Assembly: GCA_009845855.1 (NCBI GenBank)
Contig: VXYT01000034.1
Coordinates: forward strand, 64,820 to 128,819
DNA from: Candidatus Palauibacter ramosifaciens
GTDB lineage: Bacteria > Gemmatimonadota > Gemmatimonadetes > Palauibacterales > Palauibacteraceae
Length of the DNA stretch: 64,000 nt
Direction of reading: 5' to 3'
The notes beneath the pieces are model-generated. The model was not told the origin of the DNA. It saw only the letters and a program-made list of their open reading frames with translations, and ran no database searches. Shown in pieces: positions 1,434 through 47,142 of this stretch. The position numbers were made by a program, and so were the translations under genes. The stretch's first letter is position 1. Every line of letters begins with the position of its first letter.

Positions 1434-1464
1434 TGAACCATCCTCCTTGTTGCCACGCCTTTCT

Positions 1465-3829: not shown

Positions 3830-3911
3830 CGTTCAACCGCACCAAGTCCGCCATGTAGGACATGCATGCGGAGTGGCCGAGAAGGTTCGACGATTCCCCG
3901 ACACGACGAAA

Positions 3912-4226
3912 TCAATCCGGATTGTTCTCTCTTCTCAGTTCACAGTATTCAATCGTTGCCAGTGTGATTTCTGGACAGATGCGTTGCCCTGCTATCCATC
4001 TGACGAGTCTCGAGCGGATGTCGGGATCCGTTTCAACGATACCCTTCAGCCGAAGACCTACGTGCCCCGTCATCCGGTATGGTCCACAAGCATCGCAATC
4101 CCACACGTGCTTGTCCTTGTTCTCGACACGGATCGGCGCCGGAACTGGAGCGTCGCAGATCTGACAGCAGAAGGATCTTCTGAGTGTCTTGGATAGGGCA
4201 TCAGGAAGCCCATGACGGTGGTTCAT
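3912..4226 (-). CDS. Small zinc-ribbon (CxxC...CxxC) hypothetical protein
   Basis: ATG at 4226 after GGGGAAGAGG; CQIC...WDCDACGPYRMT motif; 104 aa. Confidence 0.55.
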   Translation of the reverse strand: MNHRHGLPDALSKTLRRSFCCQICDAPVPAPIRVENKDKHVWDCDACGPYRMTGHVGLRLKGIVETDPDIRSRLVRWIAGQRICPEITLATIEYCELRRENNPD

Positions 4227-4297
4227 CCGTTCGTCCTCTTCCCCCGAGTTGCGCTTTCCTCCGCACCGTGCCGACACGCCCTAACGGCTGCGGATTC

Positions 4298-4729
4298 CTA
4301 ACAGCTGCTTGCCTCGACGATCTCGCCGATGACGTCCGTGGCGCTCGTCGACGAGTTAAGACACCACGTTCGCTGCGACGCTGCGTGTTTCGCCGTGATC
4401 CGGTAGCCGTCCTCATAAGCCGTCACCGTCAGCGCGACATTGCGGCTGGCTTGGAAGTCGACAGTTCCGTCACCGTCGAGATCCGTCGAGCCACCCGCCG
4501 CGATAGTGCTTGTCACGTAGGCTTGTGTGGCGAGGAAGTGTGCCTCTTCGACCCTCATCATGCTGTAAATGTCGCTTCGAGCTGTGGCATCGAACGTCTC
4601 TTGCTTCATTCTAGTGAACCGCGGGATTGCGATGGCCGCCAAGATGCCAACGATTACTACGATAATCAGGAGTTCGATGAGAGTGAAACCCGCTGCCGTC
4701 TTCAACGTCCCTTTTGATTCTCTCTTCAT
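4298..4729 (-). CDS. Type IV pilin / prepilin-type N-terminal cleavage-methylation protein
   Basis: Class III signal G|FTLIELLIIVVIVGILAAIAIPRF with Glu at +5; C-terminal Cys pair (WC...SSC). Confidence 0.92.
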   Translation of the reverse strand: MKRESKGTLKTAAGFTLIELLIIVVIVGILAAIAIPRFTRMKQETFDATARSDIYSMMRVEEAHFLATQAYVTSTIAAGGSTDLDGDGTVDFQASRNVALTVTAYEDGYRITAKHAASQRTWCLNSSTSATDVIGEIVEASSC

Positions 4730-4906
4730 TCTCGTCCCATCCTCTCGTCACACAGATTGTCGGCAACGCCCCGTCGCGCAGGACGAGGGGGCAGTCGCCT
4801 GGCGAGCACTGTGGAGTCTGCAATGGCCCCCGGACGATCAAGCTCTTCTTGAGTTCGGTATATCATCTGCCGATAACAAAGAACCGACGAGCCGGGACTG
4901 CCGCCG

Positions 4907-5527
4907 CTACCAATCCGGCGGTTCATCGAAGCCTGAGACCGCGCGGACTTGCCCATCCCTCAGGAAGACCGTAAGCGAATGGACGCGACCGGTGCCATCG
5001 TACAACGGCTGGCGGAGATCCCCGACTCCTGTTGGGGGCCTCGATGGTGGCAACCCCAGCGCCCGTAGCGCTTCCGGCACGGTGGCGAACCCGTTCGCAA
5101 TAGCGGCCGTCCATGAACGGACGACGGCGACGCCATCGACTGACTCAGGCCGTGCTCGCAAGCGCAGACTCCACCTCTTACCATCGAAACGGAGCCACCG
5201 GTCGGCTCCGACCGCGCGGTCCGCGATGGCCGGTCCGTACCTTGTGAAGGCCTCATCGATTGTGGCGCCAAGAAGATCACGAACGTCGGGAGCCAAGACG
5301 CCTTCGGCATCACTCTCATGCTGCGACATGCGAGGAAGTAAGGGGGCTGCGGGGCAGCACCGCAAGCCGCCTACCCTCCCCTCCAGATCCGTCGCGGGGT
5401 CGATCGTGTCGAGACCTTCAAGCCGGCCCGGGTCGGGGACGAGCAAGGTGCGCGTCACGAGACTCACGCCCACGAGCACGAGCGCGGCGCCCAGCGCCTT
5501 GCGTTCCGCGCGATTCAGATCCCACAC
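4907..5527 (-). pseudogene. Chimeric ORF: probable comEA 5' end fused at ~5378 to unrelated lower-GC coding sequence
   Basis: The first ~50 codons (MWDLNRAERKALGAALVLVGVSLVTRTLL...TDLEG) have a strong RBS, backbone codon usage and a membrane anchor of the ComEA type. No helix-hairpin-helix follows, and codon style changes after TDLEG. The comEA identity is inference. Confidence 0.4.
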
Positions 5528-5597
5528 CCCTCACCTCCCCTCGTAGCAGGTCCGATTCCTGCCCGAGGATCGGGGAGCGGATCAACCGGTCATCAAA

Positions 5598-6278
5598 TCA
5601 GAAGATGAAGACGATCTCGGCCCAGCCGTCGACCGGGGTCCCGTGGCGGAGCGCGGGGCGGTACTCCCACGCCCGCACCTGGCGCATGATGTCGCGGTTG
5701 AAGTCCTCGTCCGGGGTCGGGGGATCGAGTTCGACGAGGCTGGGACGCCCGGTCGCGTCGACGAAAACGCGCACCGTCACCTCCATGCCGCGGACGGCGC
5801 TCGGCGGGTCCCAGTGCGGCACGACGGACCTCGGCACGGGCGACACGTAGCCGTCGCCCTCGCCGCCGCCCGCTCCTTCCTCGCCGGCGCCGAACCCGGC
5901 CCCGAGACCGGGCGACGGTGCCGGCGCACCGACGGGGAGCAGTTCGGAGGCCACGTCGATCTCCGCCTCGCGTACCTGGATCTCGGGCATGTCGACGGCG
6001 AGGACGGGCCGCGGCGGCGGAGGGATCTCGATCCGGCGCGGCATGGAGACCCTGACCGCCATCAGGCCGCCCCCGCCGGCGGTGAGATCGGGATCGACGC
6101 CGGGCCGCGCCGCCGGCTCGAACTCGGGCGCCGGGCGCACCCACAGGAGGAGGAGGAACGCGTGCAGGAGAACGGAAGCGAGCATCCCGCCCCACCACAC
6201 GGCCCGCTCGCGGCCACGGGAACGCGATGAGGCGACCCGGTATCGCCAGTCCGGCCGTTTCCTTGTCGTCGTGCGCAC
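5598..6278 (-). CDS. TonB-family energy transducer
   Basis: N-terminal TM helix with SVLLH (SxxxH TonB motif), Pro/Gly-rich linker, C-terminal VRVFVDATG...WEYRPALRHG.PV domain. Confidence 0.85.
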   Translation of the reverse strand: MRTTTRKRPDWRYRVASSRSRGRERAVWWGGMLASVLLHAFLLLLWVRPAPEFEPAARPGVDPDLTAGGGGLMAVRVSMPRRIEIPPPPRPVLAVDMPEIQVREAEIDVASELLPVGAPAPSPGLGAGFGAGEEGAGGGEGDGYVSPVPRSVVPHWDPPSAVRGMEVTVRVFVDATGRPSLVELDPPTPDEDFNRDIMRQVRAWEYRPALRHGTPVDGWAEIVFIF

Positions 6279-9473: not shown

Positions 9474-9531
9474 GAGCATGGGAATCGTGACGGAGCATGA
9501 AATCGTGACGGAGCATGAATCGTGACGGAGC
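9474..9531 (+). repeat. Three tandem copies of GAGCATG(G/A)nAATCGTGACG (19, 18, 17 nt) before rpe
   Basis: Read directly: 9474-9492, 9493-9510, 9511-9527, then a partial GAGC. Confidence 0.9.
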
Positions 9532-10226
9532 GCGGACTGAATCGGGAGCTGCCCGGGGGGATGGTCATCGCCCCGTCCATCCTCGCCGCCGACTACGCGC
9601 GGCTGGGGGCGGAGGTGGCCGAGGCGGAGGCCGCGGGCGCGGAGTGGTTCCAGCTCGACGTCATGGACGGGCACTTCGTCCCCAACCTCACGATCGGGCT
9701 GCCGGTGCTGGAGTCGTTGCGCGCGGTGTCCGACTCGTTCCTCGACGTCCACCTGATGATCGACAACCCCGGGGAGTTCCTCGAGCCGTTCGCGGAGGCG
9801 GGGGCCGACATGCTCACGGTCCACCAGGAGGTGTCGGCCCACCTGCACGGCGACCTGCACCGGATCCGGGAGCTGGGCTGCCATGCCGGGGTCGCGCTCA
9901 ACCCGGCCACGCCCGCGGAGACGCTGTCGGAGGTCCTGTGCTACGTGGACCTCGTCCTCGTGATGACGGTGAACCCGGGGTTCGGAGGACAGAGGTTCAT
10001 CGCCGAGGCGGTGCCGAAGATCTCCACGGTGCTTCGGATGGCCGCGGACCGCGGGCTCGCTCCGCCGCTGATCCAGGTCGACGGAGGGATCGATCCCGCG
10101 TCCGCCCCGGTGTGCGCCGCGGCGGGGGCGTCGGTGTTCGTGGCCGGTTCCTCGGTCTTCCGGTGGGCGCCCGGCATCGCCGCGAACATGGCCGCGCTGC
10201 GCGACGCGCTCGCGCCCTACGGCTGA
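9522..10226 (+). CDS. rpe: Ribulose-phosphate 3-epimerase
   Basis: APSILAAD, DVMDGHFVPN, DVHLMI, MTVNPGFGGQ, VDGG. Start may instead be ATG 9561. Confidence 0.95.
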   Translation: MTERGLNRELPGGMVIAPSILAADYARLGAEVAEAEAAGAEWFQLDVMDGHFVPNLTIGLPVLESLRAVSDSFLDVHLMIDNPGEFLEPFAEAGADMLTVHQEVSAHLHGDLHRIRELGCHAGVALNPATPAETLSEVLCYVDLVLVMTVNPGFGGQRFIAEAVPKISTVLRMAADRGLAPPLIQVDGGIDPASAPVCAAAGASVFVAGSSVFRWAPGIAANMAALRDALAPYG

Positions 10227-11428: not shown

Positions 11429-12346
11429 ATGCGTATCGTCTCGCTCCTCGCCTCCGGCACCGAGATCGTCGACGCGCTCGGTCTCGGCGAGAGCCTCGTC
11501 GGCATCTCGCACGAGTGCGATCATCCGCCGCACCTGCTCGACCGTCCGCGCGTCAGCCGCCCCCGCTTCGACCCGGAGGGCCTCTCGAGCGGAGAGATCG
11601 ACGCCGCCGTGCGACAGGCGATGACCGAACACGGCAGCGTATACGAGGTCGACGCAGCCGTCCTCGAGAAGCTCGACCCGGACATCATCATCACCCAGGC
11701 CGTGTGCGACGTGTGCGCCGTGCCGACGGACGGCGTGCGGGAGGTGCTCGGGGCGCGCGGAATCGAGGCCGACGTGGTGTCGCTGGACGCGCACACGATC
11801 GAAGACATCCTCGCTTCGATCACGCAGGTGGCGCGCGCCGCCGGCCATCCGGATGTCGCCCCGGCTGCGGGGGGGTCGCTGCGGAGGCGACTCGACGCGG
11901 TGCGGGCGGCCGTGGGGGATGCGGACCCGCCGGGGGTGCTCGGGATCGAGTGGTTCGATCCGCCGTTCACGCCTGGCCACTGGGTGCCGGAGATGATCGA
12001 ACTCGCCGGAGGCCGCAACCTGGCCGGCGAGGCGGGGCAGCCTTCCCGGGAAGTGTCGTGGGATGAGATCAGAGGGCTCGATCCGGACGCGCTCCTCCTC
12101 ATGCCGTGCGGCTACGGCCTCGACGCGTCGCGCGCAGACGCGGACGCGCACGCTGAGCGCCTTGGAGAAGTGGCGCCGCGCGCGATCGCGGAGGTCCGCG
12201 CCTGGGTCGTCGACGCCTCCTCTTACTTCAACCGCTCGGGCCCCCGTTTCGTCACCGGCGTCGAGATCCTGGGTGGATTGTTGCACCCGGACCGCGTCCC
12301 CACCCCGGATGCGGAGGTCGCCGCCGTGTGGACGCCTCCGGCCTGA
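11429..12346 (+). CDS. BtuF-like (cobalamin/siderophore-binding fold) protein without a signal peptide
   Basis: MRIVSLL.S.TEI, VGISHECDHP, GHWVPEMI, YFNRSGPR motifs; the fold starts at Met1. Confidence 0.85.
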   Translation: MRIVSLLASGTEIVDALGLGESLVGISHECDHPPHLLDRPRVSRPRFDPEGLSSGEIDAAVRQAMTEHGSVYEVDAAVLEKLDPDIIITQAVCDVCAVPTDGVREVLGARGIEADVVSLDAHTIEDILASITQVARAAGHPDVAPAAGGSLRRRLDAVRAAVGDADPPGVLGIEWFDPPFTPGHWVPEMIELAGGRNLAGEAGQPSREVSWDEIRGLDPDALLLMPCGYGLDASRADADAHAERLGEVAPRAIAEVRAWVVDASSYFNRSGPRFVTGVEILGGLLHPDRVPTPDAEVAAVWTPPA

Positions 12347-17497: not shown

Positions 17498-19087
17498 ATG
17501 GCCCCACCGCGGCTGGAAGCGCTCGAGGCCCTCTCGGGCGCGATTGAGCGGGGGCGCCACCTCGCGCTCATCGCCGCCGAGGGAGCGGGCCTCGCCCCGC
17601 TCTACGCGGCCGCCGCCTTGCGGGATCTTGCCGCCGGCGAGGCGGGGGGACGCGCCTTCGTGCTTACCGCCACCGCGGACCGCGCGCGGCGCTGCGCGGC
17701 GCGCATGCATGCCGCCGCGCGGGACGCCGGGTACGAGGTCGTCGTCGTGCCGGGCGCCGCGGGCGGGGCGGTTGGGCGGGCTCCGATCCTCGTGGGGCCT
17801 CCGGCCGTCCTGCTGGAGGGGGTGCGAAAGGGCGACATCCCGGCCGCGGCGCTGTGCTCCCTGGTCCTCGACGACGTGCGTGCGCTCGAGCCGGCGCGGG
17901 CGGCCGTCGAGGCCGTCGTGCAGGCCTCTGGCGAGGGGGCTCGGCGGATCGCGACGACTCACGCCCGGGATGCGGCGTTCGACGAGCTGATCGAGCGCTG
18001 GTTGCCGCGCGCGCGCCGGTGGCCGAAGGAACTGTTCGCCGAGGCGCGGGCCGGGGAGTCGGAGGCGGGCCGGGTGGCGGGCACTGCGGTCGCCGTCGCG
18101 AGCCGGGCGACGCGCGAGGGCCGGCTGGCCCGCCTGGCCGAGTTGCTCCGCGACCTCACTGGGGTCGGCGCGGCGGCCTCCGTCAGCGTCGAGACGGCCC
18201 CCGACGCCGTCGCCGACGTGCAAGCCGCGCTCTCGCTCGCCGGGCTGCACGTCGCCCGGGCCGAGGGAGCCGAAGCGGCCGAAACCGACGGCAGCGCGGG
18301 CGAAGCCAACGGCAGCGCGGGCGAAGCCAACGACGGCGGCGCGGCGCTGCGGGTCGGGGCATGGGGCGAGGTCGACCCGGCCGCCCACGCCGTCGCGTTC
18401 GAGCTGCCGCCGGGGCCGGAGCCCCTCGCCCGCGCGGCGGCCGCCGCCGAGCGCTGCTATGCCATCGTCGACTCCCTGCACGAACGGCAGTTCGAGCTGA
18501 CGGCGTTGCGGGCCGGGCTGCGGGCCGCTCCCCTGGCCGAGCCCGCCGACCCCGCGCTCATGGACGACGTGGCCGCCTTCCGCGCCCGCGTCGCCGGCGC
18601 GCTCGAGCAGCAGGATCTCGCGGCCGGCGCGCTCCTCCTCGCGCCTCTCATCCGGGAGCACGGGTCCGCGCGCGTGGCGGCCGCCCTCGCCGGACTCCTC
18701 CGCGCGGCGGAGCGGCCGGCCCCCGGGGCGCGGGAGGCGGCGCCCGGCGACGCACCGTCCGGCGACGCACGGCCCGGCGACGCACGGCCCGGCGACACCG
18801 CGGCCGCGCCGCCCGACAGGAGCGCCCGGCGCGCCACTCGCCCCACGTGGACCAAGGTCTTCGTCGGCGTCGGCAAGCGCGACGGCGCGGGCCCGGGCGA
18901 CCTCGTCGGCGCGATCACCGGCGAAACCTCCGTTGCGGGCGGACAGATCGGGCGCATCGACATCCGGCAGAACTTCACCCTCGTCGACATCGATTCGCTG
19001 GCCGCCGACGCGGTGGTCCGCGGCCTCGATGGCAGCCGGATCAAGGGGCGCCAGGTCGTCGCGCGCCTCGACCGCGGGGCGCGATGA
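17498..19087 (+). CDS. Degenerate DEAD-box-like protein with a C-terminal DbpA/CsdA RNA-binding domain
   Basis: Motif I reads AEGAGLA, Ia TATADRA, Ib GPPAVL, II LDDVR, III TTH. The C-terminal [35 protein letters not shown] domain is intact. Confidence 0.8.
18288..18332 (+). repeat. In-frame 21-nt tandem duplication (GSAGEAN)
   Basis: ACGGCAGCGCGGGCGAAGCCA x2 plus a partial copy. Confidence 0.9.
18743..18802 (+). repeat. In-frame 15-nt tandem repeat x4 ([20 protein letters not shown])
   Basis: (C/T)CCGGCGACGCAC-type unit repeated in the linker before the RNA-binding domain. Confidence 0.85.
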
Positions 19088-22405: not shown

Positions 22406-22440
22406 TTGTCGTGGATACAATACTCCTGTATAGTATATCC
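22406..22440 (+). promoter_or_regulatory. sigma70 promoter overlapped by a CsoR/RcnR-type operator
   Basis: TTGTCG (22406-22411), 17-nt spacer, TATAGT (22429-22434). Inverted repeat ATACT-N7-AGTAT (22420-22436) with outer GGAT/ATCC, directly upstream of csoR-copA. Confidence 0.8.
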
Positions 22441-22494
22441 AATGTCAGGACGACCGCGGACCGACTCGACGGATCGAAGTCGGATGGCCGGTCG

Positions 22495-22830
22495 ATGATG
22501 GACGCGAGCGCGGAGGGAATGGCGGTGAGCCACGCGGGGCCGCATGCGATGGGGATCGCGGAGGGGACGAAGCACGACCTCGGCCGTCGGTTGGCCCGTA
22601 TCCGGGGACAGGTCGGGGGCATCGCCCGCATGGTGGAGGATGAGCGGTACTGCCCGGACATCCTGCAGCAGTTCGCCGCCGTTCACTCCGCGCTGCGCGC
22701 GGCCGAGAAGGAACTCCTGCTGAACCACCTTGAGCGCTGCGCCACCCACGCCATCGAGGAGGGCGGCGACGACGCGGCGCGGGTGAGAGCGGAGATCGCG
22801 GATCTCTTCATGCGCTTCGCCGGCAGGTAA
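22495..22830 (+). CDS. csoR: CsoR/RcnR-family copper-sensing repressor
   Basis: RRLARIRGQVGGIARMVEDERYCPDILQQ..AV..AL and HLERC (Cys-His-Cys ligand set). Start approximate. Confidence 0.9.
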   Translation: MMDASAEGMAVSHAGPHAMGIAEGTKHDLGRRLARIRGQVGGIARMVEDERYCPDILQQFAAVHSALRAAEKELLLNHLERCATHAIEEGGDDAARVRAEIADLFMRFAGR

Positions 22831-22849
22831 CGCAGATAACACTGGAAGG

Positions 22850-25141
22850 ATGATGATGGACCCTTCGACCCCCGCCCCGGCCCTCGCCAGGAAGACCTAT
22901 CGGATCGCCGGCATGCACTGTGCCGGCTGCGTCGGCTCCGTGGAGAGGAGCCTCAATGCGGTCGACGGCGTGGAGGCGTCGGTGAGCCTGCCGGCCGAGT
23001 CCGCGACGCTGACGCTCACCCGGGATGTGGGTTTCGAGGAACTCGCCGCGGCCGTCGAAGGGGCCGGCTACGAGATCGAGCCCATCGCGGACGTGGACCG
23101 CGGAGAGGCCGAGCGCTCGCGCCTTGCCGAGGCGGAAGCCCGCTCGCGCGAGGCGCGGAAAAACATGTGGACGGCGTGGGCGCTCACGGTCCCGGCCATG
23201 GTGTGGATGCTTCCGGAGATGTTCGCCGGCGTGCGCTGGCCATCGCCCCTCGTCTTCGACCTCGGCGTCACGCTGCTCGGGGCCGCCGTCCTCGCCGGGC
23301 CGGGGGGAGCGACGCTGCGCAGCGCGTGGCGTTCGGCGCGCGGCCGCACGCCGAACATGGATGTCCTCATCGCGCTCGGGGCCGGCGTCTCCGTGCTCAC
23401 GGGGGCTTGGGCGGTTCTGCACGTCCTCGGGTTTGCGCCGATGATCATGAACTTCGCGCCGGTGGGCGCGATGATCGCCGCCATCCACCTCACGGGCCGC
23501 TACGTGGAGGCGAAGGCGCGCGGACGCTCCTCGTCCGCGATCCAGGCGCTGCTCTCGCTCGAGGCGCCCACGGCCCGCGTCGAGCGCGAGGGCGCCGAAC
23601 TCGAGGTCCCGACCCGCGACGTCGCGGTGGGCGACGTGATGATCATCCGCCCGGGCGAGAAGATCCCCACGGACGGCGTCGTCCTCGAGGGACGGAGCGC
23701 GGTCGACGAGTCGCTCGCGACGGGCGAGTCGATCCCGGTCGAGAAGGAACCGGGGTCCTCCGTCCTCGGTTCGACCGTCAATCACTCCGGCGCGCTCCGG
23801 GTGCGGGCGACGGGCGTGGGCGAGGACACGTTCCTGTCCAACGTCATCCGCCTCGTGGAGGAGGCGCAGGCGAGCAAGGTCCCGATCCAGGAGTTCGCGG
23901 ACCGGGTGACCGCCATCTTCGTGCCCGTCATCCTCGTCGTCGCGCTGGCGGCCTTCGCGGGCTGGTTCGTCGTGCCCGGAGTCTTCACGGAGGCCGCGCG
24001 CTGGGCGTCGGGGTTCATCCCGTGGGTGAACCCGGAACTGGGCCGCCTCTCGCTCGCGCTCTACGCGGCGGTCGCGGTGCTCGTCATCGCCTGCCCCTGC
24101 GCGCTCGGGCTCGCCACCCCCACGGCGCTCATGGTCGGGACCGGCCTCGGAGCCACGCGCGGCGTCCTCATCCGTGACGGGGCGGCCGTGCAGACGCTGG
24201 ACCGGGCGGACACGCTCGTCTTCGACAAGACGGGCACCCTCACCCGCGGCGCGCCACGCGTGGTCGAGGTCTTCGCGACCGACGAAGCCGCCGAGGGGCG
24301 CGTACTCGCACTCGCCGCCGCGGTGGAGGACGCCTCGGAGCACCCCCTCGCCCGCGCTGTCGTCGAGGAGGCGCGCGGGCGCGGCATCCCCTTCTCCCGG
24401 GCGGGCGGCGTGGAGGCGCGGGTCGGGATGGGCATCGTCGGCGAGGTCGATGGCCAGCGGGTCGCCGTGGGGAGCGCGCGGCTGCTGCGCGAGGAGAGCA
24501 TCCCGGACGAGGACATCGCCGAGGTGGAGCGGCGTTTCCGCGACGCCGCGCGCACGGTCGCCTGGGTGGCCGCCGGCGGGCGGCTGCTCGGCGCGATCGC
24601 GATCGCCGACCCGGTGAAGGACGACGCGCGGGAAACCCTCCTCGAGCTGAGCCGCCGCGGCTTCCGCACCGTGATGCTCACCGGCGATCATGAAGCCGTG
24701 GCGGCCGCCGTCGCCGAGCACCTCGGCATCGACGACTTCCGGGCCGGGCTGCTCCCCGCCGACAAGGTCGACGCGGTGCGGCAACTCCGCGCCGAGGGCC
24801 GCACCGTGGCCTTCGTCGGCGACGGCATCAACGACGCCCCCGCGCTCAAGGCGGCCGATGTCGGCATCGCCGTGGGGACCGGCACCGACATCGCGATCGA
24901 AGCCGCGGACATCACCCTCGTGCAGGGAGATCTGCGCTCCGTGCTTCGCGCGACGAAGCTCGCCCGCGCCACCTTCCGCAAGATCCGCGAGAACCTCTTC
25001 TGGGCCTACGTCTACAACGTCGTCGCGATCCCCGTCGCCTTCCTCGGCCTCCTCCACCCCGTCCTCGCGGAGGCCGCGATGGCGCTGAGTTCGATCTCCG
25101 TCGTCACGAACGCGAACCGCCTCCGCCGCGCCCGCCTGTAG
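22850..25141 (+). CDS. copA: Cu(I)-translocating P1B-type ATPase
   Basis: HMA GMHCAGC, TGES, CPC, DKTGT, HP, GDGIND, YN and MALSS motifs. Confidence 0.93.
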   Translation: MMMDPSTPAPALARKTYRIAGMHCAGCVGSVERSLNAVDGVEASVSLPAESATLTLTRDVGFEELAAAVEGAGYEIEPIADVDRGEAERSRLAEAEARSREARKNMWTAWALTVPAMVWMLPEMFAGVRWPSPLVFDLGVTLLGAAVLAGPGGATLRSAWRSARGRTPNMDVLIALGAGVSVLTGAWAVLHVLGFAPMIMNFAPVGAMIAAIHLTGRYVEAKARGRSSSAIQALLSLEAPTARVEREGAELEVPTRDVAVGDVMIIRPGEKIPTDGVVLEGRSAVDESLATGESIPVEKEPGSSVLGSTVNHSGALRVRATGVGEDTFLSNVIRLVEEAQASKVPIQEFADRVTAIFVPVILVVALAAFAGWFVVPGVFTEAARWASGFIPWVNPELGRLSLALYAAVAVLVIACPCALGLATPTALMVGTGLGATRGVLIRDGAAVQTLDRADTLVFDKTGTLTRGAPRVVEVFATDEAAEGRVLALAAAVEDASEHPLARAVVEEARGRGIPFSRAGGVEARVGMGIVGEVDGQRVAVGSARLLREESIPDEDIAEVERRFRDAARTVAWVAAGGRLLGAIAIADPVKDDARETLLELSRRGFRTVMLTGDHEAVAAAVAEHLGIDDFRAGLLPADKVDAVRQLRAEGRTVAFVGDGINDAPALKAADVGIAVGTGTDIAIEAADITLVQGDLRSVLRATKLARATFRKIRENLFWAYVYNVVAIPVAFLGLLHPVLAEAAMALSSISVVTNANRLRRARL

Positions 25142-25254
25142 CCGACCTCGGCCGAAGCTTCGCGGCCGGCAGCCCGACGTTGCCTTTGCCCCTGCCGGCG
25201 CGCATCATAGGCGCCGGTTCGACGGTTCATCCGGTTTCTTCCGAGAGAGGTTCG

Positions 25255-25596
25255 ATGGCCTCACGCTGGGTCGGTCTCGCGCTGGGACTCTGGTTCCTGG
25301 GCGCTCCGTTCATCTGGGGATACCCGTTCGGTTTCTTGTGGTGGCACAGCGTGGTGCTCGGCGGTTCCATCCTCGTCGTCACCATCACCTTCAACCTCGG
25401 CATCAACCGGATCAGCGGCTGGGGCCTCATCGCCCTCGGCGCCTACAGCATGCTGTCGCCCTTCATCCACGGGTATCTCGCCAACGCACAGGCCCTGTTC
25501 AACGACCTCATCTTCGGCGTCATCACCGTGGGCACCGGCACCGCGATGGGCGGGGCGGGAATCGAACACTCCGACGAGGCGCCCAGCGCCGCCTGA
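25255..25596 (+). CDS. SPW-repeat small membrane protein
   Basis: ATG after GAGAGG; four TM segments with W...APF and SPF motifs. Confidence 0.8.
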   Translation: MASRWVGLALGLWFLGAPFIWGYPFGFLWWHSVVLGGSILVVTITFNLGINRISGWGLIALGAYSMLSPFIHGYLANAQALFNDLIFGVITVGTGTAMGGAGIEHSDEAPSAA

Positions 25597-25597
25597 C
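25564..25597 (+). repeat. 34-bp imperfect direct repeat, copy 1 (3' end of the SPW gene)
   Basis: GAACACTCCGACGAGGCGCCCAGCGCCGCCTGAC; 30/34 identical to 26829-26862, first 19 bp identical. Confidence 0.9.
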
Positions 25598-25603
25598 CCC
25601 GAG

Positions 25604-25617
25604 GACGTTCCCGCGGG
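25604..25617. repeat. GACGTTCCCGCGGG motif downstream of a beta-propeller gene
   Basis: Identical to the 14-mer at 27607-27620. Confidence 0.75.
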
Positions 25618-25631
25618 CACTTCACCTCCGC

Positions 25632-26834
25632 CTAGCAGCCCGCGGACCCGGTCCATTCCTCCACCACGAAGCCTTCGATGGTGTGGATTCCCAGTTCGTT
25701 GAGCCGCACACCCCAGATCGTGTCCCGCAGGACTTCGCTTGGGGTGAACAGGCGCGGTAGGAGAACGTCGGAGGGTGGAGGGATCTCCACGGCGTCGTCG
25801 ACCCTCCGGAGCGTCCATACTCTCCAGCGGCTGTGCTCCCGCCGATCCGCTTCGAGCAGTATGGACTCCGGATCCAACCGTGCCCACACGCGGCCATCCG
25901 ACATGAACTGAAGGTCATGCACGGCTGGATGCCGCTCCGGTACGGGCAGGAGGTTTCTGAGATCGAACTCCTCCTGACGTGCCTCCGGGAAGAACCTCGA
26001 GAAGAACGCATCCACCTCCTGCTCCGTGATTCTCGGCCCACGCAGGGAGTCCCGGATCGCACCGACCACGTCGCCGACTCCGTCGAGCAGGACGATCTCT
26101 AGCCGCCTTCCTCCGACCGACACCGCCGCCAGCCCTCCGCAGGCCGCACTCACATCCGCGTGTGGAGGCGCATCGAACGGTCGGATGAACGCGGACACGC
26201 TCATCGACCTTCCATCGCCCGACCACACTCCAACGGGACCCCACGGCGGCACGTGGCGGACGGTGTCGATCGCATCGGAGTCGAAGTGCTCGAGTTCGAT
26301 GGCGGTCGGCGGTTCAGCATCCTCTGCCGGTGGGTTCATCGCACCCAGGGCGACTCCGGAGATCACGAGCCGCCGATGGCCCAGGTCAAACACGTCGCGC
26401 GCCATCCTGCCGGGCCGCTGCTCCACCGCGATGGTCTCCCCTACTTCGGCGTCCGGTCGAAACCGCGTCAGGCGTCGCGCGATCCGATCCCACACCGTCG
26501 CGCCGCCCGTGATGTTCGGGGACAGACTCAGCGGCAGCCGAAACTCCCCGGGGCCATCGCCCTCCCGTCCAACCGCGTACACGCTGTCGGGTGTGCGAAT
26601 CACGATACGTAAGTTGCCCGCGTCGAGAATCCAGAGATCATCGCCGACACGACTCACATGTTCCGGCCGGAACAACGGCCCCGCGGTTTCGGCCTCCGTC
26701 AATTGCCGCACACGAGTCGCAGTCACGACCGGAAGCGTTCTCGCCGTCCCGACGGCCTCGGCGCCGCCGTCACAGCCCGCGACCCCGAACGTGACCGTGC
26801 AGACGAGCCCAATAGGTCCACTCTTCGTGAACAC
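25632..26834 (-). CDS. 6-bladed beta-propeller lipoprotein (NHL-like), intact
   Basis: Lipobox VAGC; ILDAGN, VGREGDGPGEFR, VWD...RRLTRF, DGRVW, IWGVRLNELG..IE pattern. Confidence 0.85.
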   Translation of the reverse strand: MFTKSGPIGLVCTVTFGVAGCDGGAEAVGTARTLPVVTATRVRQLTEAETAGPLFRPEHVSRVGDDLWILDAGNLRIVIRTPDSVYAVGREGDGPGEFRLPLSLSPNITGGATVWDRIARRLTRFRPDAEVGETIAVEQRPGRMARDVFDLGHRRLVISGVALGAMNPPAEDAEPPTAIELEHFDSDAIDTVRHVPPWGPVGVWSGDGRSMSVSAFIRPFDAPPHADVSAACGGLAAVSVGGRRLEIVLLDGVGDVVGAIRDSLRGPRITEQEVDAFFSRFFPEARQEEFDLRNLLPVPERHPAVHDLQFMSDGRVWARLDPESILLEADRREHSRWRVWTLRRVDDAVEIPPPSDVLLPRLFTPSEVLRDTIWGVRLNELGIHTIEGFVVEEWTGSAGC

Positions 26835-26862
26835 TCCGACGAGGCGCTCGGCGCCACCCGAC
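26829..26862 (+). repeat. 34-bp imperfect direct repeat, copy 2 (covers the GTG start of the 25632-26834 gene)
   Basis: GAACACTCCGACGAGGCGCTCGGCGCCACCCGAC, 1265 bp from copy 1. Confidence 0.9.
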
Positions 26863-26869
26863 TGGGCGG

Positions 26870-27184
26870 TCAGTTGTCGCAGCGGCGTAGATCGCGACCG
26901 GAGCGGTCTTCTTGCTCGAGGACGAGGAGGACGCGGGCCTGTCGCGTCTCCGAGACGACGACCCTCGGCGTCGGCGACCCGAAGCCGCCGCAGTCGGCCC
27001 GCACCTGGTACGCGCCGGGCGGCAGGTCCTCCATCGCGAAGCGGCCGGCAGCATCGGTCACGACTCGGACGTCGGTGCCGACCAGGATGACGGGCACGGC
27101 CGGGAACCCCCGCCCCGTGTTTCCGTTCACGACCCGCCCGGCGACCGATCCCGGCATCGTGACGGGGACGACCAGACGCGCCAC
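26870..27184 (-). pseudogene. Carboxypeptidase-regulatory-like (prealbumin-like) domain gene, probably 5'-truncated
   Basis: GSVAGRVVNGNTG....V.V.LVGT....VTDAAGRF....LPPGAYQVRA...GF; ends RRCDN; no signal peptide. Confidence 0.65.
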
Positions 27185-27204
27185 CTCACCGGGTTCGGCA
27201 CGGA

Positions 27205-27588
27205 GAGTATGCGATCGTCGGAGACCGCCATCGCCAACGGAGACTCAGCCTCGCCCGGCCCCTCTCCGTGAGGCACGAATGCGGCTTCCAGCGAACCGGA
27301 TGTCGTGAAGACGCGCACGTACGGCGGTGCCTGGTCGAGCACGACGACGAAACGTCCATCCGGGGTGAGATGGGCGTCACGGATTCGGGTGAAACCTTCC
27401 CCCTCCGAGGCGGGGTTTATCGCCGCGCCGATACGAACAGCCGAGTCGAGCAGGCGCGCCATGGACACGGAGACATCGACTGCATCCCGGTCGGCCGCGA
27501 GCTCAGACCCGTCGGGCGCGCGGTCGCCGCCACACGCCAGAAGGCCAACAAGCGCGGCGATCCTGCAGCGTACGTACGCATCGCCCAA
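27205..27588 (-). pseudogene. N-terminal fragment of a beta-propeller lipoprotein
   Basis: TTG start at 27588 after GGAGAG; lipobox LLAC; VLDQAPPYVRVF and GEGPGEAESP motifs. Homology stops after SDDRIL, where the sequence switches to the carboxypeptidase-like gene. The 27205 end is approximate. Confidence 0.7.
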
Positions 27589-27608
27589 TCGCTGCTCTCC
27601 TTGCCAGA

Positions 27609-27624
27609 CGTTCCCGCGGGAACG
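27609..27624. repeat. Perfect 16-bp palindrome CGTTCCCGCGGGAACG between propeller genes
   Basis: Read directly; self-complementary. Confidence 0.9.
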
Positions 27625-27661
27625 CGTGCTACTCCGGCTCGAGGCCCAGTGCGACCTGATC

Positions 27662-28850
27662 CTATCGGATGATTCGGAGACGCACGACGTACTGGAGGTC
27701 AAGCGCATCCCGTGAGACGCCGATGACCGTCTCTTCCCCGAACACCGGCGGGGGTTTCGTGTCGAGGAGAACCGGAGAGGCGATCTTGCCGATGTAGACC
27801 CCGTACTCGTCAAAGACGTCCCATTCCCGCACGGCTCCCGTTTCCGTAGCGACCCAGATCCACCCATTCGCACCGGAGTGAATGGAGCGGAGCGAGAGCT
27901 TGTGGTCCGGCAGTCTGTCCGGCGGCACGCCGGTCGCGGCGGCGATCTGTTGCCGATCATGACCAACAAGCGGGGCCGGGGGGCGACGCAACCGTATGGT
28001 CTTTGTGGTGTCACCCCGATACGTGACTCTGTGCAAGTCGAAGACCGCCTGGTTCGCCAACCAAACGTCCCCATCGGCAGCCACGTCGAGCGTAACGGCT
28101 GGCGAATGGGGGACGGGGGATATCTCCGTAAGGTTACCGGCAGTGCGCGAATACGTCTCGACCCGCCGGTCGAGGTGTGGGATCCGGAACGTATCGGCAG
28201 CGGCGAGTGCCTCGCCGCTGCCGTGTCGGACCAGGAATGTCGAGGGCGAGGTCGGCAGCGTCCCGTCCGGCACCCTGAACGGCACGGCCCAGCGATGCAC
28301 GCGCCCGCCGTTGTCGACCCAGAGCGGCCACGGGAACCGCGCGCTCGTGGCGGGTCCCAGAGAGAGCGATGCCCGAACCGCACCGGTCGAGTCGAACAGC
28401 GTCAACCGGTGCGCGAGGGCATCCATGGCCCTAGAGGGAGTGCCGCGACCGCGCGATGCCAGCCAGCATGGCGAACTCCCCGGGCCCGCTCCCGTCCCGA
28501 CCGAGGGTCTGCAGACATGCACCGCTGGGCGAAAAGATGCGAATAGTGTTCGCACCCAGATCGGCCACATAGATCCGTCCCGGACCGTCAACAAAAAGGG
28601 AGACTACACTGGCGAAGGCGTCGCAGTCGCCCTCCACCGATCCGATGCGCAACTCCTCGACCAGCGTCGGGGCGCGGGCTGCGCGCGACGAAGGCGAGTC
28701 GGGACTGGAGATGACGACCCGTCCGCCGCGGAGCGTGTCCACCCACACGCCGTCCGCACGGGCCGACGCCTCCTCGCAACCCGAGACGGAGACGGCCCCA
28801 CAGATCACACCGACCCAACAGCGGAGTGTCAGTTGTCGCAGCGGCGCACC
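27662..28850 (-). pseudogene. 6-bladed beta-propeller lipoprotein broken by a 1-nt frameshift
   Basis: The N-half (VSGC lipobox, EELRIG, IYVAD, GRDGSGPGEF) ends at TAG 28433-28431; the C-half is in ORF 27662-28594. Deleting base 28432 restores ...L-W-A-M-D-A-L-A-H-R-L-T-L-F-D. Start uncertain. Confidence 0.8.
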
Positions 28851-28881
28851 TCGCGGCCGGATCGATCTTCGGGCTCCAGGA
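28828..28881 (-). repeat. Second copy of the 3' end of the carboxypeptidase-like gene
   Basis: 45/54 identical to 26869-26922, including an exact GTCAGTTGTCGCAGCGGCG. Encodes VLEPEDRSGREVRRCDN* versus VLEQEDRSGRDLRRCDN*. Confidence 0.85.
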
Positions 28882-28961
28882 CCCGGCTCCTGCCCCCCCA
28901 CCGCCGCCGGCGGCCCGCCAGTCCCAGGGAACGGAAGCCGCGCGCCGACAGCCGCGCGCGT

Positions 28962-29987
28962 CTACCTCGCACAGGGAGAGCCGCCCGCTGGACGCAGCGG
29001 CCGCAAGGCGATCATGAACGCTTCGGGTTCGATTACGCGGGTGCGGCGACCGTTGATTTGGCGGACGCTGACACCGCGTTCGTACACGATGGCGCTATCA
29101 CCGTGCACACCCATGATGGATCGGTGACGCTCACGGCTTTCGTCCACCAGGAGCGAGTAGCAACCCGTGGCCGGATCGATGATGGCGGCGGCGAACTCGA
29201 GGCGCATGTGGTTGACGAACGTAAGCACCAAGTGGCCCTGGCCGTCGTGTGAAAGGCTCCTGTAGGAACTCGTGTAGCGCCCGCCATCGGGTCTGGACGC
29301 CCGCCACTCCGTCACGGCCTCGGCGACCTCCGGGGGGACGGGCACGGTGATCGACTCACCCGCGGTCGAATGACCGACGATGGTCCCTTCCGCGATGAAG
29401 TACGCCATGTCGTCGAAGCAGACCCCGTCGGCGGCGAGTAAAGATCTTGAGCGGCCGGCGTCCTGCAGGGGACGCTGACCAGCGCCGAGGCGCGCTCCAC
29501 CGGGCCCCCGAAGCGCCCCGTGCAGGAGCGGAACGACCGGGTCGTCACCCATGGCGCATACGTATTTTGCGAAATTCAAGCCCGGATTCCAGGTCCAGGC
29601 CGAATCGGCGGCCACGGTCCAATAATTGACGCGCAAACCATCGGACACGAGCAGGCCACCATTGGCCGCCGCCACATCCTGGACCATGTTGCGCACCTCG
29701 CCCGGGCCGTCGCCGCGTCCCCTGCCGTACGTGCCGACGACGGTTCCGTCCGCGATCGAGAACGCGACCACGAGCCCAGGCTCACCGACCTCGGCGACGT
29801 AGATCCGCCTTCGTTCATGATCCACCTCGAACACATGCGTCAGAAAGGCGCGCGTCCAGTCGTTCACCACCTCCCGTCCCGCCTGGTGGTCCACTGACAA
29901 CCGCTGCTGCCCCGCCAGGGGTAGCGAGGAAAGGCATAACCAGAGGGCGACGAGGAGTCGAAGGGCTCTCCCCTTGTCGGTGCCCAT
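28962..29987 (-). CDS. Secreted 6-bladed beta-propeller-like protein, intact
   Basis: Signal peptide ending LAG-Q; IYVAE, YGRGRGDGPGEVR motifs; starts 4 nt after the upstream gene's stop. Confidence 0.8.
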   Translation of the reverse strand: MGTDKGRALRLLVALWLCLSSLPLAGQQRLSVDHQAGREVVNDWTRAFLTHVFEVDHERRRIYVAEVGEPGLVVAFSIADGTVVGTYGRGRGDGPGEVRNMVQDVAAANGGLLVSDGLRVNYWTVAADSAWTWNPGLNFAKYVCAMGDDPVVPLLHGALRGPGGARLGAGQRPLQDAGRSRSLLAADGVCFDDMAYFIAEGTIVGHSTAGESITVPVPPEVAEAVTEWRASRPDGGRYTSSYRSLSHDGQGHLVLTFVNHMRLEFAAAIIDPATGCYSLLVDESRERHRSIMGVHGDSAIVYERGVSVRQINGRRTRVIEPEAFMIALRPLRPAGGSPCAR

Positions 29988-29991
29988 CGAT

Positions 29992-30510
29992 CTAGTAGAC
30001 GAAGGAATGGGAATCGCCTGCTGCTACTCCGTTTTGCCCGCACCCGGAGTAGTCGCAAAGAACCGTTACACTGCCCAGTGGACCAACATCGTACCATTGT
30101 TCCGTCAGGCGACAGGCTTCTATAGCCGAGGGGGCTCCGGCGTTCGCCGCGCCATTCGGATCCGGGATGCGTGACTGAGCCGGCGCCGCCGGCTCGGCCA
30201 GGAGCGTGGTGCAGAGGAGCACCTCCTCTGTCGTAAGCAGCGAAGGCGCCGAGGGGTGGCCAGATTTGACGGTTCGGGACGGCGCGTTCTCGATGAACCC
30301 GGACATCGACGCTCCCTGGATTTCTCCGACCGGGGCCTGACCGGCTACCGCATCGGGGAGTACCGTAAGCACTACTCCGAGCGACAGCACCAACACGCTA
30401 CGCCAGCTCGATCCTGCGTGGGCGGCCCTATGCGGCACAAGCGAAGCTACGAGCGCTGCGACCAGAGCGCACGGAACAGGCCTGTAGCGTCGTGTTCTTA
30501 CGTTCGACAT
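29992..30510 (-). CDS. Secreted Cys-containing precursor-like protein (172 aa)
   Basis: ATG at 30510 after GGGAGG. Two hydrophobic segments (ending AAHA and AVAG), a low-complexity Pro/Ala/Ser spacer, and a C-terminal ~40 aa with C-x18-C-x4-C. Confidence 0.6.
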   Translation of the reverse strand: MSNVRTRRYRPVPCALVAALVASLVPHRAAHAGSSWRSVLVLSLGVVLTVLPDAVAGQAPVGEIQGASMSGFIENAPSRTVKSGHPSAPSLLTTEEVLLCTTLLAEPAAPAQSRIPDPNGAANAGAPSAIEACRLTEQWYDVGPLGSVTVLCDYSGCGQNGVAAGDSHSFVY

Positions 30511-30575
30511 CTCTGCCTCCCGGACCCAGAGGGACGCTCGCCCCGGAACTCGTTCCCGAGGCTCGTACATGGACG

Positions 30576-31457
30576 CTACGGGGCAGCAACCGGCGTCGGG
30601 TAGATGCAATATCGGTGAATCTTTGACGAAATCGGTGTAGTGCTGGCCGCATGTGGTTTCAGGCGTTCCGTGAACCGAAGTCCGCTACCGGTCTTGGGGT
30701 CGCCGGGCCGCGTCGGCCGCAAGTACTGCTCCACGAGCGCTTTCAGCAGGCGGTCAGGAGGGACCTTCTCCAGTTGCACCAGCGTGCACCCGCGCCAGCG
30801 TTTCGACTTGCGCTGAAGCGTCTCGCGGGCGAAGCCGAGGTGCATGCTGACGCTGTTCCAGTTCAGGCCCGAGGAACGAAGTTGCCTGGCTCTCAGGATC
30901 ACCAGGGCCGCCAAGAATCGGCTCAGGGTCGTCCTCCGATCGTGCCATGTACTGAACGCCTTCGAGAGTGTGATCGGCGAGTAGCGAACGGCGGCGGCCA
31001 ACTCGTTCACGCTACGCACGGGCCGGTCGGTGGCGGCGCGGAGGCTGTACGGCAGCGCGGTTCGAAGGGCGGGGGGCAGCGTCGCTTCCCCGGCTTGCTC
31101 GGCCAGGCGCAGCAGCGGGACCGACCCGCGGGCCGCTTCGATCTCGAGCGGGAGTTCGGTCTGCAGGTCCGCGAACCAGGCGACGGCGGACGCTTTGACG
31201 TCGCTCAGCCGGCGAACGGCTTCGGGCTCGCGATCCGTGACGAGGATGAGGGGAATCCACAGCCTCTTCCGTTCGATGTCCCCCAGGAGTTCGATCGTCT
31301 CCGCCGGGATGGGATGGCGGCAACCGAGAATCAGACACTCCACCGGGTCATCGCCATTCACAAACTGAGCGGCATTCGTCACGATCCGCGCGGCGCTGCC
31401 GGCCGCTCGCGCGATCAGTGCCGCGTCGTTCTTCGAGCCCGCCAGAACGTTGATCAT
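30576..31457 (-). CDS. Transcriptional regulator: degenerate receiver-like N-domain plus AraC-type HTH
   Basis: ATG at 31457 after GGAGGAGG; WIPLILVT receiver strand; SVNELAAAVRYSPITLSKAF and WNSVSMHLGF..RETL helix-turn-helix pair. Confidence 0.75.
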   Translation of the reverse strand: MINVLAGSKNDAALIARAAGSAARIVTNAAQFVNGDDPVECLILGCRHPIPAETIELLGDIERKRLWIPLILVTDREPEAVRRLSDVKASAVAWFADLQTELPLEIEAARGSVPLLRLAEQAGEATLPPALRTALPYSLRAATDRPVRSVNELAAAVRYSPITLSKAFSTWHDRRTTLSRFLAALVILRARQLRSSGLNWNSVSMHLGFARETLQRKSKRWRGCTLVQLEKVPPDRLLKALVEQYLRPTRPGDPKTGSGLRFTERLKPHAASTTPISSKIHRYCIYPTPVAAP

Positions 31458-31611
31458 CCGATCCTCCTCCGAGCGTTTCTGATGCACCCCCCTACTATTA
31501 ATGGTCCTCCCGAGCATCAAACTTCGTTCGGGCTCGTTGGGCGTTGGGGCCGGATGGGGGCGTCGGAATCGCCGAAAACCCGCTTGGGCTGTACGGATTC
31601 GGGGGTTGCTG

Positions 31612-46011: not shown

Positions 46012-47142
46012 CTAGGCCACGGCGCGGTAGTCCTCGATCTCCCGAAACCCCAGCCCCCCCAGCGCCTCCCGGATCTCGCGGCGGGCTCCGGGCGTGCCGA
46101 CGGCGAGGAGCACGTACGGGCGGGCGGGGGCGGCGAACCCCGGGAGGTCCTCTGGGCGGAGGACGATGGCGCCGTGGATGTTCTGGCCGATCTTGCGCGG
46201 GTCCAGGTCCACGAACGCCTCCACCGGGCGGGCGCGACTCGCGGCGCCTCCCTGCTCGAGCCAGCCGCGCGCGAAGGCCTTGCCGACCTTGCCCGCGCCC
46301 CAGATGACGAGCGGCCGTCCAGCCGGCAGGCAACCGGCCGAGAGGTGCGCGACCTTCAGACGCCGGAACGCATCGCGGCCGTAGCGGTCCGACCGCTCCG
46401 AGAGCCGATGCGGGCCCAGGCGCCACTCGTGGAGCACCCGCGGCACGTTCGTCATGCGGCAGCCCGCCGCGGACAGCCGCAGGATGAGGTCGTAGTCCTC
46501 CGGTCCCCCTGAGTCGCGATAGCCGCCGACCGCCTCGAAGGCGTCGCGCCGCACCATCAGCGTGGGGTGGGCGATCGGACACTCGACGAACAGGTCCCGC
46601 TCGATCGCGGCGGGTTCGGTAAGCCCGTTGATCCAGCGCTCGTAGCGGAGGTAGCCCGAGCCGCGCCGCGGCCGCGGGAAGTAGCGGACGCCCGTGCCAC
46701 ACGCCGCGACACCGGGGCGCCGGGCAAGGAGACGGAGTTGCGCGGCCAGCCGGCCCGGGCGCGCGATGTCGTCGGCGTCCATGCGGGCGAGGAGCGGCGA
46801 CCGCGCCTCACCCGACAGCCGGCGCAGGGCCGCGACGATCCCTGAACCGTCTCGATCGATGAGGCGGACGCGGGGGTCCCGGTCCGCCCACGCCTGCAGC
46901 AGCGGCCCGGTGCCGTCTCTCGACCCATCATCGAGCGCGAGCACCTCGAAGCGCGGCTCGGACTGGGCGGCGAGGCTCTCGATGCACGCGCCCAGGAAGG
47001 GTTCGGCGTCCCGGCACGGCAGCAGGATGGAGACGCGCCGCGCGTCCACCGGGTTCACGCCCGGGTTCACGCCCTGGTTCTCGCCCGGGTTCACGCCTGC
47101 TGTGTCCGGGTCACGCCGACTCGGCTCCGGTGACGGCCGCAT
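46012..47142 (-). CDS. Glycosyltransferase family 2
   Basis: [31 protein letters not shown]. The start may lie downstream of the annotated one. Confidence 0.9.
47049..47096. repeat. 12-nt tandem repeat x4 (GVNP/GENQ) in the GT2 N-terminus
   Basis: CCGGGTTCACGC x2, CCTGGTTCTCGC, CCGGGTTCACGC. Confidence 0.9.

Follow-up and report, generated by a model that had tools for sequence, protein, structure and literature searches.

The locus described here lies in a stretch of 64,000 nucleotides of contig VXYT01000034.1 (the window), which belongs to a metagenome-assembled genome of Candidatus Palauibacter (Gemmatimonadota) obtained from sponge metagenomes. The genus was represented in this analysis solely by metagenome-assembled genomes from sponge and coral samples, and the sequences compared are designated by L numbers. 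The element in question is a 34-bp direct repeat made from the 3' end of a gene for an SPW-repeat membrane protein, the two copies of which enclose a single gene, named prop1. The SPW gene (25255-25596, plus strand; 113 aa as called in public assemblies) matched Pfam PF03779 with E=7.5e-12 and 46 bits against a cut-off of 31.5. It is the last gene of a unit (22411-25596, all on the plus strand) in which it follows a CsoR-like repressor and the copper P-type ATPase CopA, both recognized by domain matches. To the right of SPW extends a cluster of paralogous genes for predicted lipoproteins and CarboxypepD_reg proteins, all on the minus strand and several of them broken, with an AraC-like gene and a phosphoglycerate-mutase-like gene at its far end.

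The two copies of the repeat, 25564-25597 (GAACACTCCGACGAGGCGCCCAGCGCCGCCTGAC) and 26829-26862 (GAACACTCCGACGAGGCGCTCGGCGCCACCCGAC), both in the plus orientation, were recognized by direct reading and again in an independent repeat search (family D8). Of the 34 positions 30 agree, including every one of the first 19, and the spacing is 1265 bp. Copy 1 is the functional 3' end of SPW, encoding …EHSDEAPSAA and the stop codon TGA (25594-25596), and all relatives have this sequence at the end of SPW. Copy 2 differs by four substitutions, with TGA changed to CGA, and carries on its minus strand the GTG start codon of prop1 (26834-26832); it is located between the stop codon of a CarboxypepD_reg open reading frame (ORF 26870-27184, minus strand; the gene is called reg below) and the 400-aa ORF of prop1 (25632-26834, minus strand). 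These positions, spacings and codon assignments agree in full with the first-pass annotation made from the window. That annotation also stated that exactly one propeller gene is enclosed: exactly one called gene does lie between the copies, while its designation as a propeller found no confirmation, as described below.

The 19-mer common to the two copies is present at only two sites in the window, even when up to three mismatches are allowed; in 100 shuffled sequences the mean number of matches was 0.05, and none reached 2. In complete Palauibacter chromosomes the 19-mer is single-copy, contrary to the possibility, raised beforehand, of a common dispersed repeat. Further matches among 185,579 genomes were all outside Gemmatimonadota and are read as chance occurrences. 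A profile built from the final 63 nt of SPW genes matched 26829-26858 with E=2e-4, from profile position 31 onward. Three such partial matches were obtained in total (the window, L172 and L036), all with an identical starting position in the profile; except for these orthologous scars in two other genomes, the remaining partial matches had E>1. The repeat pair is not a product of chance.

The origin of copy 2 is indicated by its right-hand side. The segment 26829-27208 was aligned as one BLASTN block with L169 (92.9% identity), L168, L010 and L017, the block starting at the very first base of the repeat, and in all four the aligned block covers the terminus of an intact SPW gene together with the 3' portion of reg, which is convergent to it; reg-side identity was 89% for both L036 and L168. 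The gap between SPW and reg in the relatives is 6-10 nt and hairpin-less in L169 and L168, and includes a hairpin in L010, L017 and L047. The 7-nt spacer TGGGCGG (26863-26869), which leads from copy 2 to the stop codon of reg in the window, corresponds to the hairpin-less type. Since copy 2 is collinear with these true SPW-reg junctions, it appears to be the tail left behind by an SPW gene that formerly faced reg, that is, a decayed and pseudogenised leftover of its last 31-34 bases. An allele with an empty site had been predicted, and genomes of the L169/L168 type, in which a single SPW end is joined to reg, represent it, with the hairpin-containing form in L010, L017 and L047.

The same relic was detected in L172, a sponge-metagenome lineage 92.5% identical to the window over 25591-27208, with the same left boundary and the same type of 7-nt spacer, and in L036 (complete chromosome OZ220691). 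The substitutions C20T, G28A and T31C are common to the relics of the window, L172 and L036, and a fourth relic, with an internal deletion and a retained hairpin, is present in L176. The right neighbour of the relic is reg in the window, L172 and L036, and a hairpin plus a gene for a 237-aa protein in L176. The junction string GGAGTGTTCACG.AG (GGAGTG-TTC-ACG.AG) is shared by all four; the sequence following it is prop1 in the window and L172 and a gene of the '350-like' lipoprotein type in L036 and L176. The scar thus belongs with reg and not with the enclosed gene, because the same junction has another left neighbour in L036 and L176. Both copies at the 1265-bp spacing, in an identical layout, were found in all 7 same-strain contigs from several samples. 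The scar is old and decayed. The pattern of the relic-reg junction had no match in JGI (Joint Genome Institute) metagenome contigs. As a separate observation, the 18-mer at the reg stop codon, TCAGTTGTCGCAGCGGCG (coding for …RRCDN-stop on its reverse complement), occurs verbatim at the ends of many unrelated low-GC JGI sequences among the matches listed (L048-L127, many of them Ga01263xx), often adjoining TTAGGG-like repeats; these occurrences are probably unrelated to Palauibacter.

The gene prop1 exists elsewhere without the second copy of the repeat. In L176, one unbroken stretch (89.8% identity over window positions 25000-26796) comprises SPW, an intact hairpin and prop1, and a second SPW end is absent; L041 shows a similar SPW-hairpin-prop1 arrangement with the native prop1 N-terminus and one SPW end, and in L174 a full-length reg gene is followed by prop1 through a native spacer of 44 nt. 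The prop1 orthologues of L176, L041, L174 and L015 all lack a flanking SPW-end repeat. Upstream of prop1 in L176 there is a 5' coding fragment of a 350-like paralogue, ending with …GAC TTC ACG AAG TGG AGG AGG ATT GG; the 350-like gene that L176 itself possesses shows homology, at its 5' end, to L176 8819-8881. By alignment with L176, L041, L174 and L015, the sequence TTCACGAAGAGTGGACCTATTGG (26809-26831, minus strand) was identified as a remnant of this 350-like fragment, which now forms codons 2-9 of prop1.

The junction itself can be read base by base. On the minus strand of the window, the relic …GGAGTG TTC leads directly into TTC ACG AAG AGT GGA CCT ATT GG, the two parts overlapping by the 3-nt microhomology TTC (GAA on the plus strand, 26829-26831), which is found within GTG-TTC-GAT on the reverse complement of SPW and within GAC-TTC-ACG of the 350-like sequence. 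About 39 nt including the native ATG of prop1 are missing just downstream, and sequence formerly outside prop1 is now in frame from the GTG within the relic. The simplest reading is that one ancient joint connected an SPW end with a 350-like fragment, local rearrangements following later. Two candidate descriptions were rejected on this evidence: the 15 nt at 26814-26828 are not filler, as the 350-like fragment stands upstream of prop1 in L176, and prop1 was not the partner originally inserted, as the junction shared with L036 and L176 points to the 350-like fragment as the original left partner.

The enclosed gene itself encodes a predicted lipoprotein (MFTKSGPIGLVCTVTFGVAGC…) of 400 aa and belongs to the family of paralogous lipoproteins of the cluster. 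Its orthologues are 85-92% identical, and contigs carrying them are present in one sponge metatranscriptome. The GTG at 26834-26832 is the sole in-frame canonical start codon of the ORF, while the native N-termini of the orthologues are MKRRIQSPGRVALGMVTFGVAGC, i.e. MK.IPSARR… or MKRRIQSPGR…. Between the window and L172, both of which keep the new N-terminus MFTKSGPIG…, dN/dS (ratio of nonsynonymous to synonymous substitution rates) was 0.19 with a dS of 0.21; at this ratio prop1 has stayed under purifying selection. The scar would represent a small exaptation, in which a dead fragment of the SPW 3' end provides, from its opposite strand, the start codon and the first predicted signal-peptide residues of a lipoprotein gene. 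No Pfam match was obtained for prop1 and 13 homologues, and the AlphaFold (AF2) model from the 14-sequence alignment was poor, with a mean pLDDT (predicted local distance difference test) of 49.7, and consisted mostly of beta strands. The 6-bladed beta-propeller family DUF5128 (PF17170) was matched only by paralogues within the cluster, and weakly; prop1 is similar to these paralogues over short stretches only (32-34% identity).

The position of the scar is best understood from the organization of the whole interval. The CsoR-CopA-SPW segment is 90-95% identical across genomes that differ in their downstream content, and it forms the conserved left anchor of a variable cluster. Many related genomes encode an identical SPW protein of 113 aa, but what lies between its gene and the phosphoglycerate-mutase-like gene varies in nearly all of them, with more than 10 different gene contents. 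The SPW-to-mutase interval is hypervariable, with its left border within about 25 nt of the SPW stop codon. The alternative contents (window 25597-31600; L008-L017, L168, L174 and L176) include ankyrin and PadR genes, a pyridoxal-phosphate decarboxylase, a PAS kinase/response-regulator pair, thioredoxin-like genes and differing sets of lipoprotein and CarboxypepD_reg genes. In L016/L174 and L028, a precisely inserted block of about 5.5 kb separates the hairpin from the 5-nt spacer that follows the SPW stop; it encodes a PAS histidine kinase, a response regulator, a protein of 577 aa and two small proteins. The G+C content at third codon positions (GC3) is 0.67-0.79 for the variable-cluster genes (window 25632-30510), as compared with 0.94 for CopA and 0.90 for SPW, the reg fragment being an exception at 0.88.

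After the SPW stop codon, most genomes carry the palindrome GGACGTTCCCGCGGGAACGTC, a near-perfect hairpin of 20-22 nt that is more conserved than the adjoining spacer. Copies are also located at module boundaries within the arrays, including four in L176, two in L172, two in the window (25603-25623 and 27606-27626) and further ones in L036 and L168. The copy at 25603-25623 is degenerate, with two substitutions, and has lost stable folding; in L176 the corresponding position has the intact version, and the 8 nt that follow it there, ahead of the prop1 orthologue's stop codon, are identical to those of the window. The idea that this hairpin had been broken by the junction was rejected, as the comparison with L176 indicates only a mutated hairpin. 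A role as an intrinsic terminator received no support from a consensus scan, and the fold z-scores of the hairpin were unremarkable.

Further pieces of SPW ends are found at such boundaries. The sequence AGCACCGCCTGACCCCGCA, a hairpin and the stop of a 350-like gene stand upstream of reg in L168, L172, L176 and L036, about 12 nt of SPW being kept, and CCCGGCGCCGCCTG.CCCCC with a hairpin follows a gene for a 374-aa protein in L176, with about 14 nt kept; a less certain copy of an SPW end with hairpin is present in L172. As the pieces kept vary in length (about 12, 14 and 31-34 nt), the breakpoints are not fixed. In the window, the second palindrome copy (27606-27626) is followed by about 22 nt resembling a 350-like 3' end and then by the stop codon of another paralogous lipoprotein gene, prop2, forming an older boundary scar, and in run X8 one contig connects the SPW end (25598) by way of 7 nt with 27608, i.e. 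with this second hairpin. To the left of the hairpin at 27606, a weak resemblance to an SPW end was without statistical support, as was the string GAACACT in L016; neither is claimed.

Other modules of the cluster are also damaged. The reg gene is represented in the window by a 3' fragment of about 112 codons (26870-27208, minus strand, including the ORF 26870-27184; PF13620, E=4.6e-14), as compared with 450-570 aa in relatives, and is full-length in L172, L036, L174 and L176. It is joined out of frame to what remains of a '350/368-like' lipoprotein gene, a 5' fragment (27189-27588, minus strand; 89.6% identity to L168rc 11889-12194), and this fusion (27127-27588 / 26870-27184) equals the L168 order of a 368-aa gene followed by reg, minus about 1.5 kb. 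The prop2 gene (27662-28808, minus strand), of which the N-terminal part matches DUF5128, is split into 27662-28426 and 28431-28808 by a stop and a frameshift at 28427-28433, while its orthologues are intact in L011 and L041; the fusion break and the prop2 break are both identical in independent assemblies. Of a second CarboxypepD_reg gene, the final ~55 nt survive as a relic directly upstream of prop2 (28828-28886, minus strand; family D2, 84% identity to 26869-26923), a similar stranded tail. The shorter SPW-end scars of the other arrays fit a repeated displacement of older modules by illegitimate recombination that would be anchored in the conserved CopA-SPW flank.

Based on these comparisons, we propose that copy 2 is an SPW tail stranded by the joining of allelic DNA, that is, a scar of sequential displacement by homology-facilitated illegitimate recombination (HFIR), and we assign to this reading a probability of about 0.72. 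In the ancestor, SPW would have stood tail to tail with the CarboxypepD_reg gene at a distance of a few bases, as it still does in L169 and L168. Incoming DNA comprising an SPW end in full, the hairpin and the lipoprotein genes downstream, most likely from another allele of the same locus, would have been joined to the resident chromosome 31-34 nt before the resident SPW end, through an illegitimate joint at the microhomology TTC, which is the reverse complement of the SPW codon GAA on one side and lies within the codons F-T of the 350-like fragment on the other. The second crossover would have taken place within the conserved CopA-SPW flank by homologous recombination of the ordinary kind. 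The old SPW tail would then be left beside reg and decay, while the incoming copy terminates SPW. Because both parental alleles carried an SPW end and the joint lay 31-34 nt inside the resident one, the 'direct repeat' would bracket the intervening DNA merely as a by-product. Later local deletions may have removed the native start of prop1, for which the GTG in the scar is used, and the hairpin beside the scar; another deletion, in the lineage of the window only, would have fused reg to the next gene. The presence of an anchor, layered modules, stranded and decaying 3' pieces and a microhomology joint is what makes the locus match sequential displacement and HFIR.

Several points weigh against this proposal. 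We infer the recombination pathway, the direction of transfer, the homologous crossover and the source of the incoming DNA, and the pathway is visible only through its product. Several independent scars fall close together, in the final ~34 nt of SPW and near a single palindrome; under a purely random illegitimate process, survivorship would have to be invoked to explain such clustering, longer repeats being unstable and junctions further to the right leaving no SPW trace. At least one extra rearrangement must be assumed for the differing right neighbour in L176, if all four scars are derived from one event. In addition, natural competence or any other DNA uptake is not established for this uncultured genus.

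The repeat pair had originally been interpreted as an attL/attR-like or target-duplication scar, with propeller genes added or excised one at a time as cassettes. A duplicated SPW 3' end left by DNA joining and an existing empty allele are in agreement with part of this view, and the cluster does grow at the SPW gene end, as indicated by the SPW-end/hairpin scars in the arrays; attachment sites or a target-site duplication are not, given the variable boundaries and the lack of a recombinase. No phage integrase, resolvase, rve, DDE or transposase domain was found among the window ORFs or among the genes tabulated for about 20 related loci, which for the window confirms by domain search what had been noted at first sight; tRNA genes were absent from the window, and Rfam gave no match in 24000-31000. 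The cassette reading fails because the scar is shared in three other lineages, two of them without prop1 (the scar lacks prop1 in L036 and L176), because prop1 adjoins SPW without a second repeat in L176 and L041, because the junction is a TTC microhomology, and because a recombinase, tRNA or known RNA gene is missing and complete genomes contain the 19-mer only once. Chromosomal SPW-hairpin-prop1 alleles are the homologues of the segment between the copies, and the empty site (L169, L168) and the filled site differ also in the hairpin and the spacer. The claim of a mobile cassette is best dropped in favour of what appears to be an ordinary recombination scar in a very variable cluster. For the related possibility of site-specific recombination, in which the SPW end and/or the palindrome GGACGTTCCCGCGGGAACGTC would be an attachment site for an integrase-like enzyme encoded elsewhere, or for an Xer-like one as for pdif modules, and the two copies would be attL and attR, one can cite the repeated entry of new DNA, in different genomes, at no more than about 25 nt from the SPW stop, the recurrence of the palindrome with a few SPW-end bases at module boundaries in L176 (four copies), L172 and the window, the conservation of the palindrome above that of its spacer and the existence of an empty site. 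The enzyme domains are, however, missing as described above, the SPW pieces kept (~12, 14 and 31-34 nt) allow no fixed crossover, and the 34-nt scar is without the palindrome, its junction lying inside the coding fragment of a truncated paralogue and not at a cassette boundary. Moreover, the scar is old and mutated, both copies persist in all 7 same-strain contigs, and no joint skipping the 1265 bp was found in the Logan contigs of one same-strain run (X1), assembled contigs being liable to hide rare variants. We regard this explanation as improbable, and give slightly less credence still to its specific form, in which the palindrome and the SPW stop region are the site of a host recombinase acting in trans, as Xer does at pdif modules. 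If that were true, the interval would be a 'cassette array' without its own recombinase, modules being added next to SPW, and the 34-bp repeat one of its products, now worn out.

A purely intragenomic origin, by unequal or slipped-strand exchange between sister chromosomes or by duplication followed by deletions, would require no DNA from a foreign strain. The cluster is indeed rich in paralogues, truncated copies and deletions (the reg/368 fusion, the split prop2 and the reg-end relic at 28828), the N-terminal region of a 350-like gene is tandemly duplicated in L176, and microhomology junctions arise likewise by such processes; nevertheless, both parental arrangements exist as separate alleles (SPW-reg in L168/L169, SPW-hairpin-prop1 in L176/L041), and inter-lineage exchange explains more simply the wholesale differences in gene content among genomes with an identical SPW protein, so that we consider an intragenomic origin unlikely but worth keeping in mind. 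Transposition of a gene-carrying unit with duplication of 34 bp of target would place direct repeats around exactly one ORF, as observed, but usual target-site duplications are 2-15 bp, 34 bp being well outside this range. Neither a transposase nor terminal inverted repeats were found in the window, the intervening segment resembles chromosomal alleles and not a mobile element, and the gene is 5'-truncated at the junction; this explanation hardly deserves consideration. The same holds for chance similarity in a GC-rich genome or a shared function at both places, such as a protein-binding site. In a GC-rich window of 64 kb, one exact match of a 19-mer, taken by itself, is by our own estimate only mildly unlikely, but the shuffled sequences give an expectation of 0.05 matches, the similarity extends into reg in the comparison with sister genomes, orthologous scars are found in three other lineages, and the relic gathers substitutions, including the loss of its stop codon, as does unconstrained DNA.

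The stranding of an SPW tail by sequential displacement has close parallels. A model of scar-leaving sequential displacement with HFIR was described for the effector-immunity loci of the T6SS (type VI secretion system) in Vibrio cholerae (Kirchberger et al. 2017, PMC5361080), and 'orphan' 3' modules are known from Rhs and contact-dependent inhibition (CDI) loci (Jackson 2009, Poole 2011 and Koskiniemi 2014, as cited in PMC5361080). As in the T6SS and Rhs arrays, a conserved anchor stands on one side, new modules are added adjacent to it and older ones are pushed downstream, displaced modules keep a piece of the anchor's 3' end, a dedicated recombinase is lacking, and alleles exist with and without the displaced layers. 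In contrast to those arrays, the anchor here is no toxin gene but a small SPW membrane protein ending a copper-efflux operon; lipoproteins and CarboxypepD_reg proteins, convergent with the anchor, take the place of toxin-immunity pairs as modules; and the pieces kept are very short (12-34 nt), with no sign of relic reuse for expression switching. HFIR itself (de Vries and Wackernagel 2002; Prudhomme et al. 2002; Meier and Wackernagel 2003, as cited in PMC5361080; also PMC3240628) likewise has one homologous end and another at a microhomology of a few bases, foreign or allelic DNA being trapped beside a conserved anchor as an insertion-deletion. It was, however, defined experimentally in competent or conjugating laboratory species, whereas here we infer it from its product in an uncultured symbiont; in addition, the joint is inside the anchor-homologous region and would give a short duplication, not a deletion.

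The locus also resembles integrase-dependent islands at gene 3' ends and integron arrays, in that direct repeats are derived from a gene 3' end, the gene is restored by the incoming copy, a same-strand gene array grows at one end and a palindrome is present at many module boundaries. Integron cassettes are defined by IntI, attI and an attC site (imperfect palindromes of 55-140 bp) at each cassette 3' end, with ORFs oriented away from attI. The Palauibacter cluster differs: it has no integrase and no attC-like structure, its palindrome is 20-22 nt long and absent beside copy 2, its repeat lengths and boundaries are variable, and its genes are directed toward the SPW end, that is, toward the insertion point. 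Flexible genomic islands between conserved core genes are known in marine bacteria. The interval is similar to these in its fixed position, from SPW to the phosphoglycerate-mutase-like gene, and in its lineage-specific genes for predicted lipoproteins and secreted proteins. Unlike them, it was compared among species-level lineages of one genus, and its layered SPW-end scars give the order of additions. The kind of scar is already known; its setting, with a non-toxin anchor in an uncultured symbiont, is unusual. The locus may serve as a clean natural example of the growth of a variable array, in which stranded 3' pieces of the anchor, some with the hairpin, mark successive additions; the order of events thereby becomes readable in an uncultured genus of sponge and coral symbionts. 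The turnover of the predicted lipoproteins and CarboxypepD_reg proteins may, as a speculation, reflect selection at the symbiont surface.

Some other features of the window were recorded. The gene at 53647-54786 encodes a D12-class N6-adenine DNA methyltransferase, with no obvious restriction partner noted. At 1-5600, the ORFs, including that of a DUF5677 protein (1465-2640, minus strand), have a GC3 of 0.5-0.7, as compared with about 0.9 in neighbouring genes, and this region may be foreign DNA. In the interval from an aminotransferase-like ORF to the gene for ribulose-phosphate 3-epimerase, an 18-nt unit (AATCGTGACGGAGCATGA) is present twice perfectly in tandem, with a third partial copy (9483-9535). 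Short in-frame tandem repeats with units of 15 nt and 12 nt are located at 48160-48264, 47049-47096 and 18742-18796, inside or near long ORFs including the ORF for a 1776-aa protein containing an ABC transporter (46694-52024).

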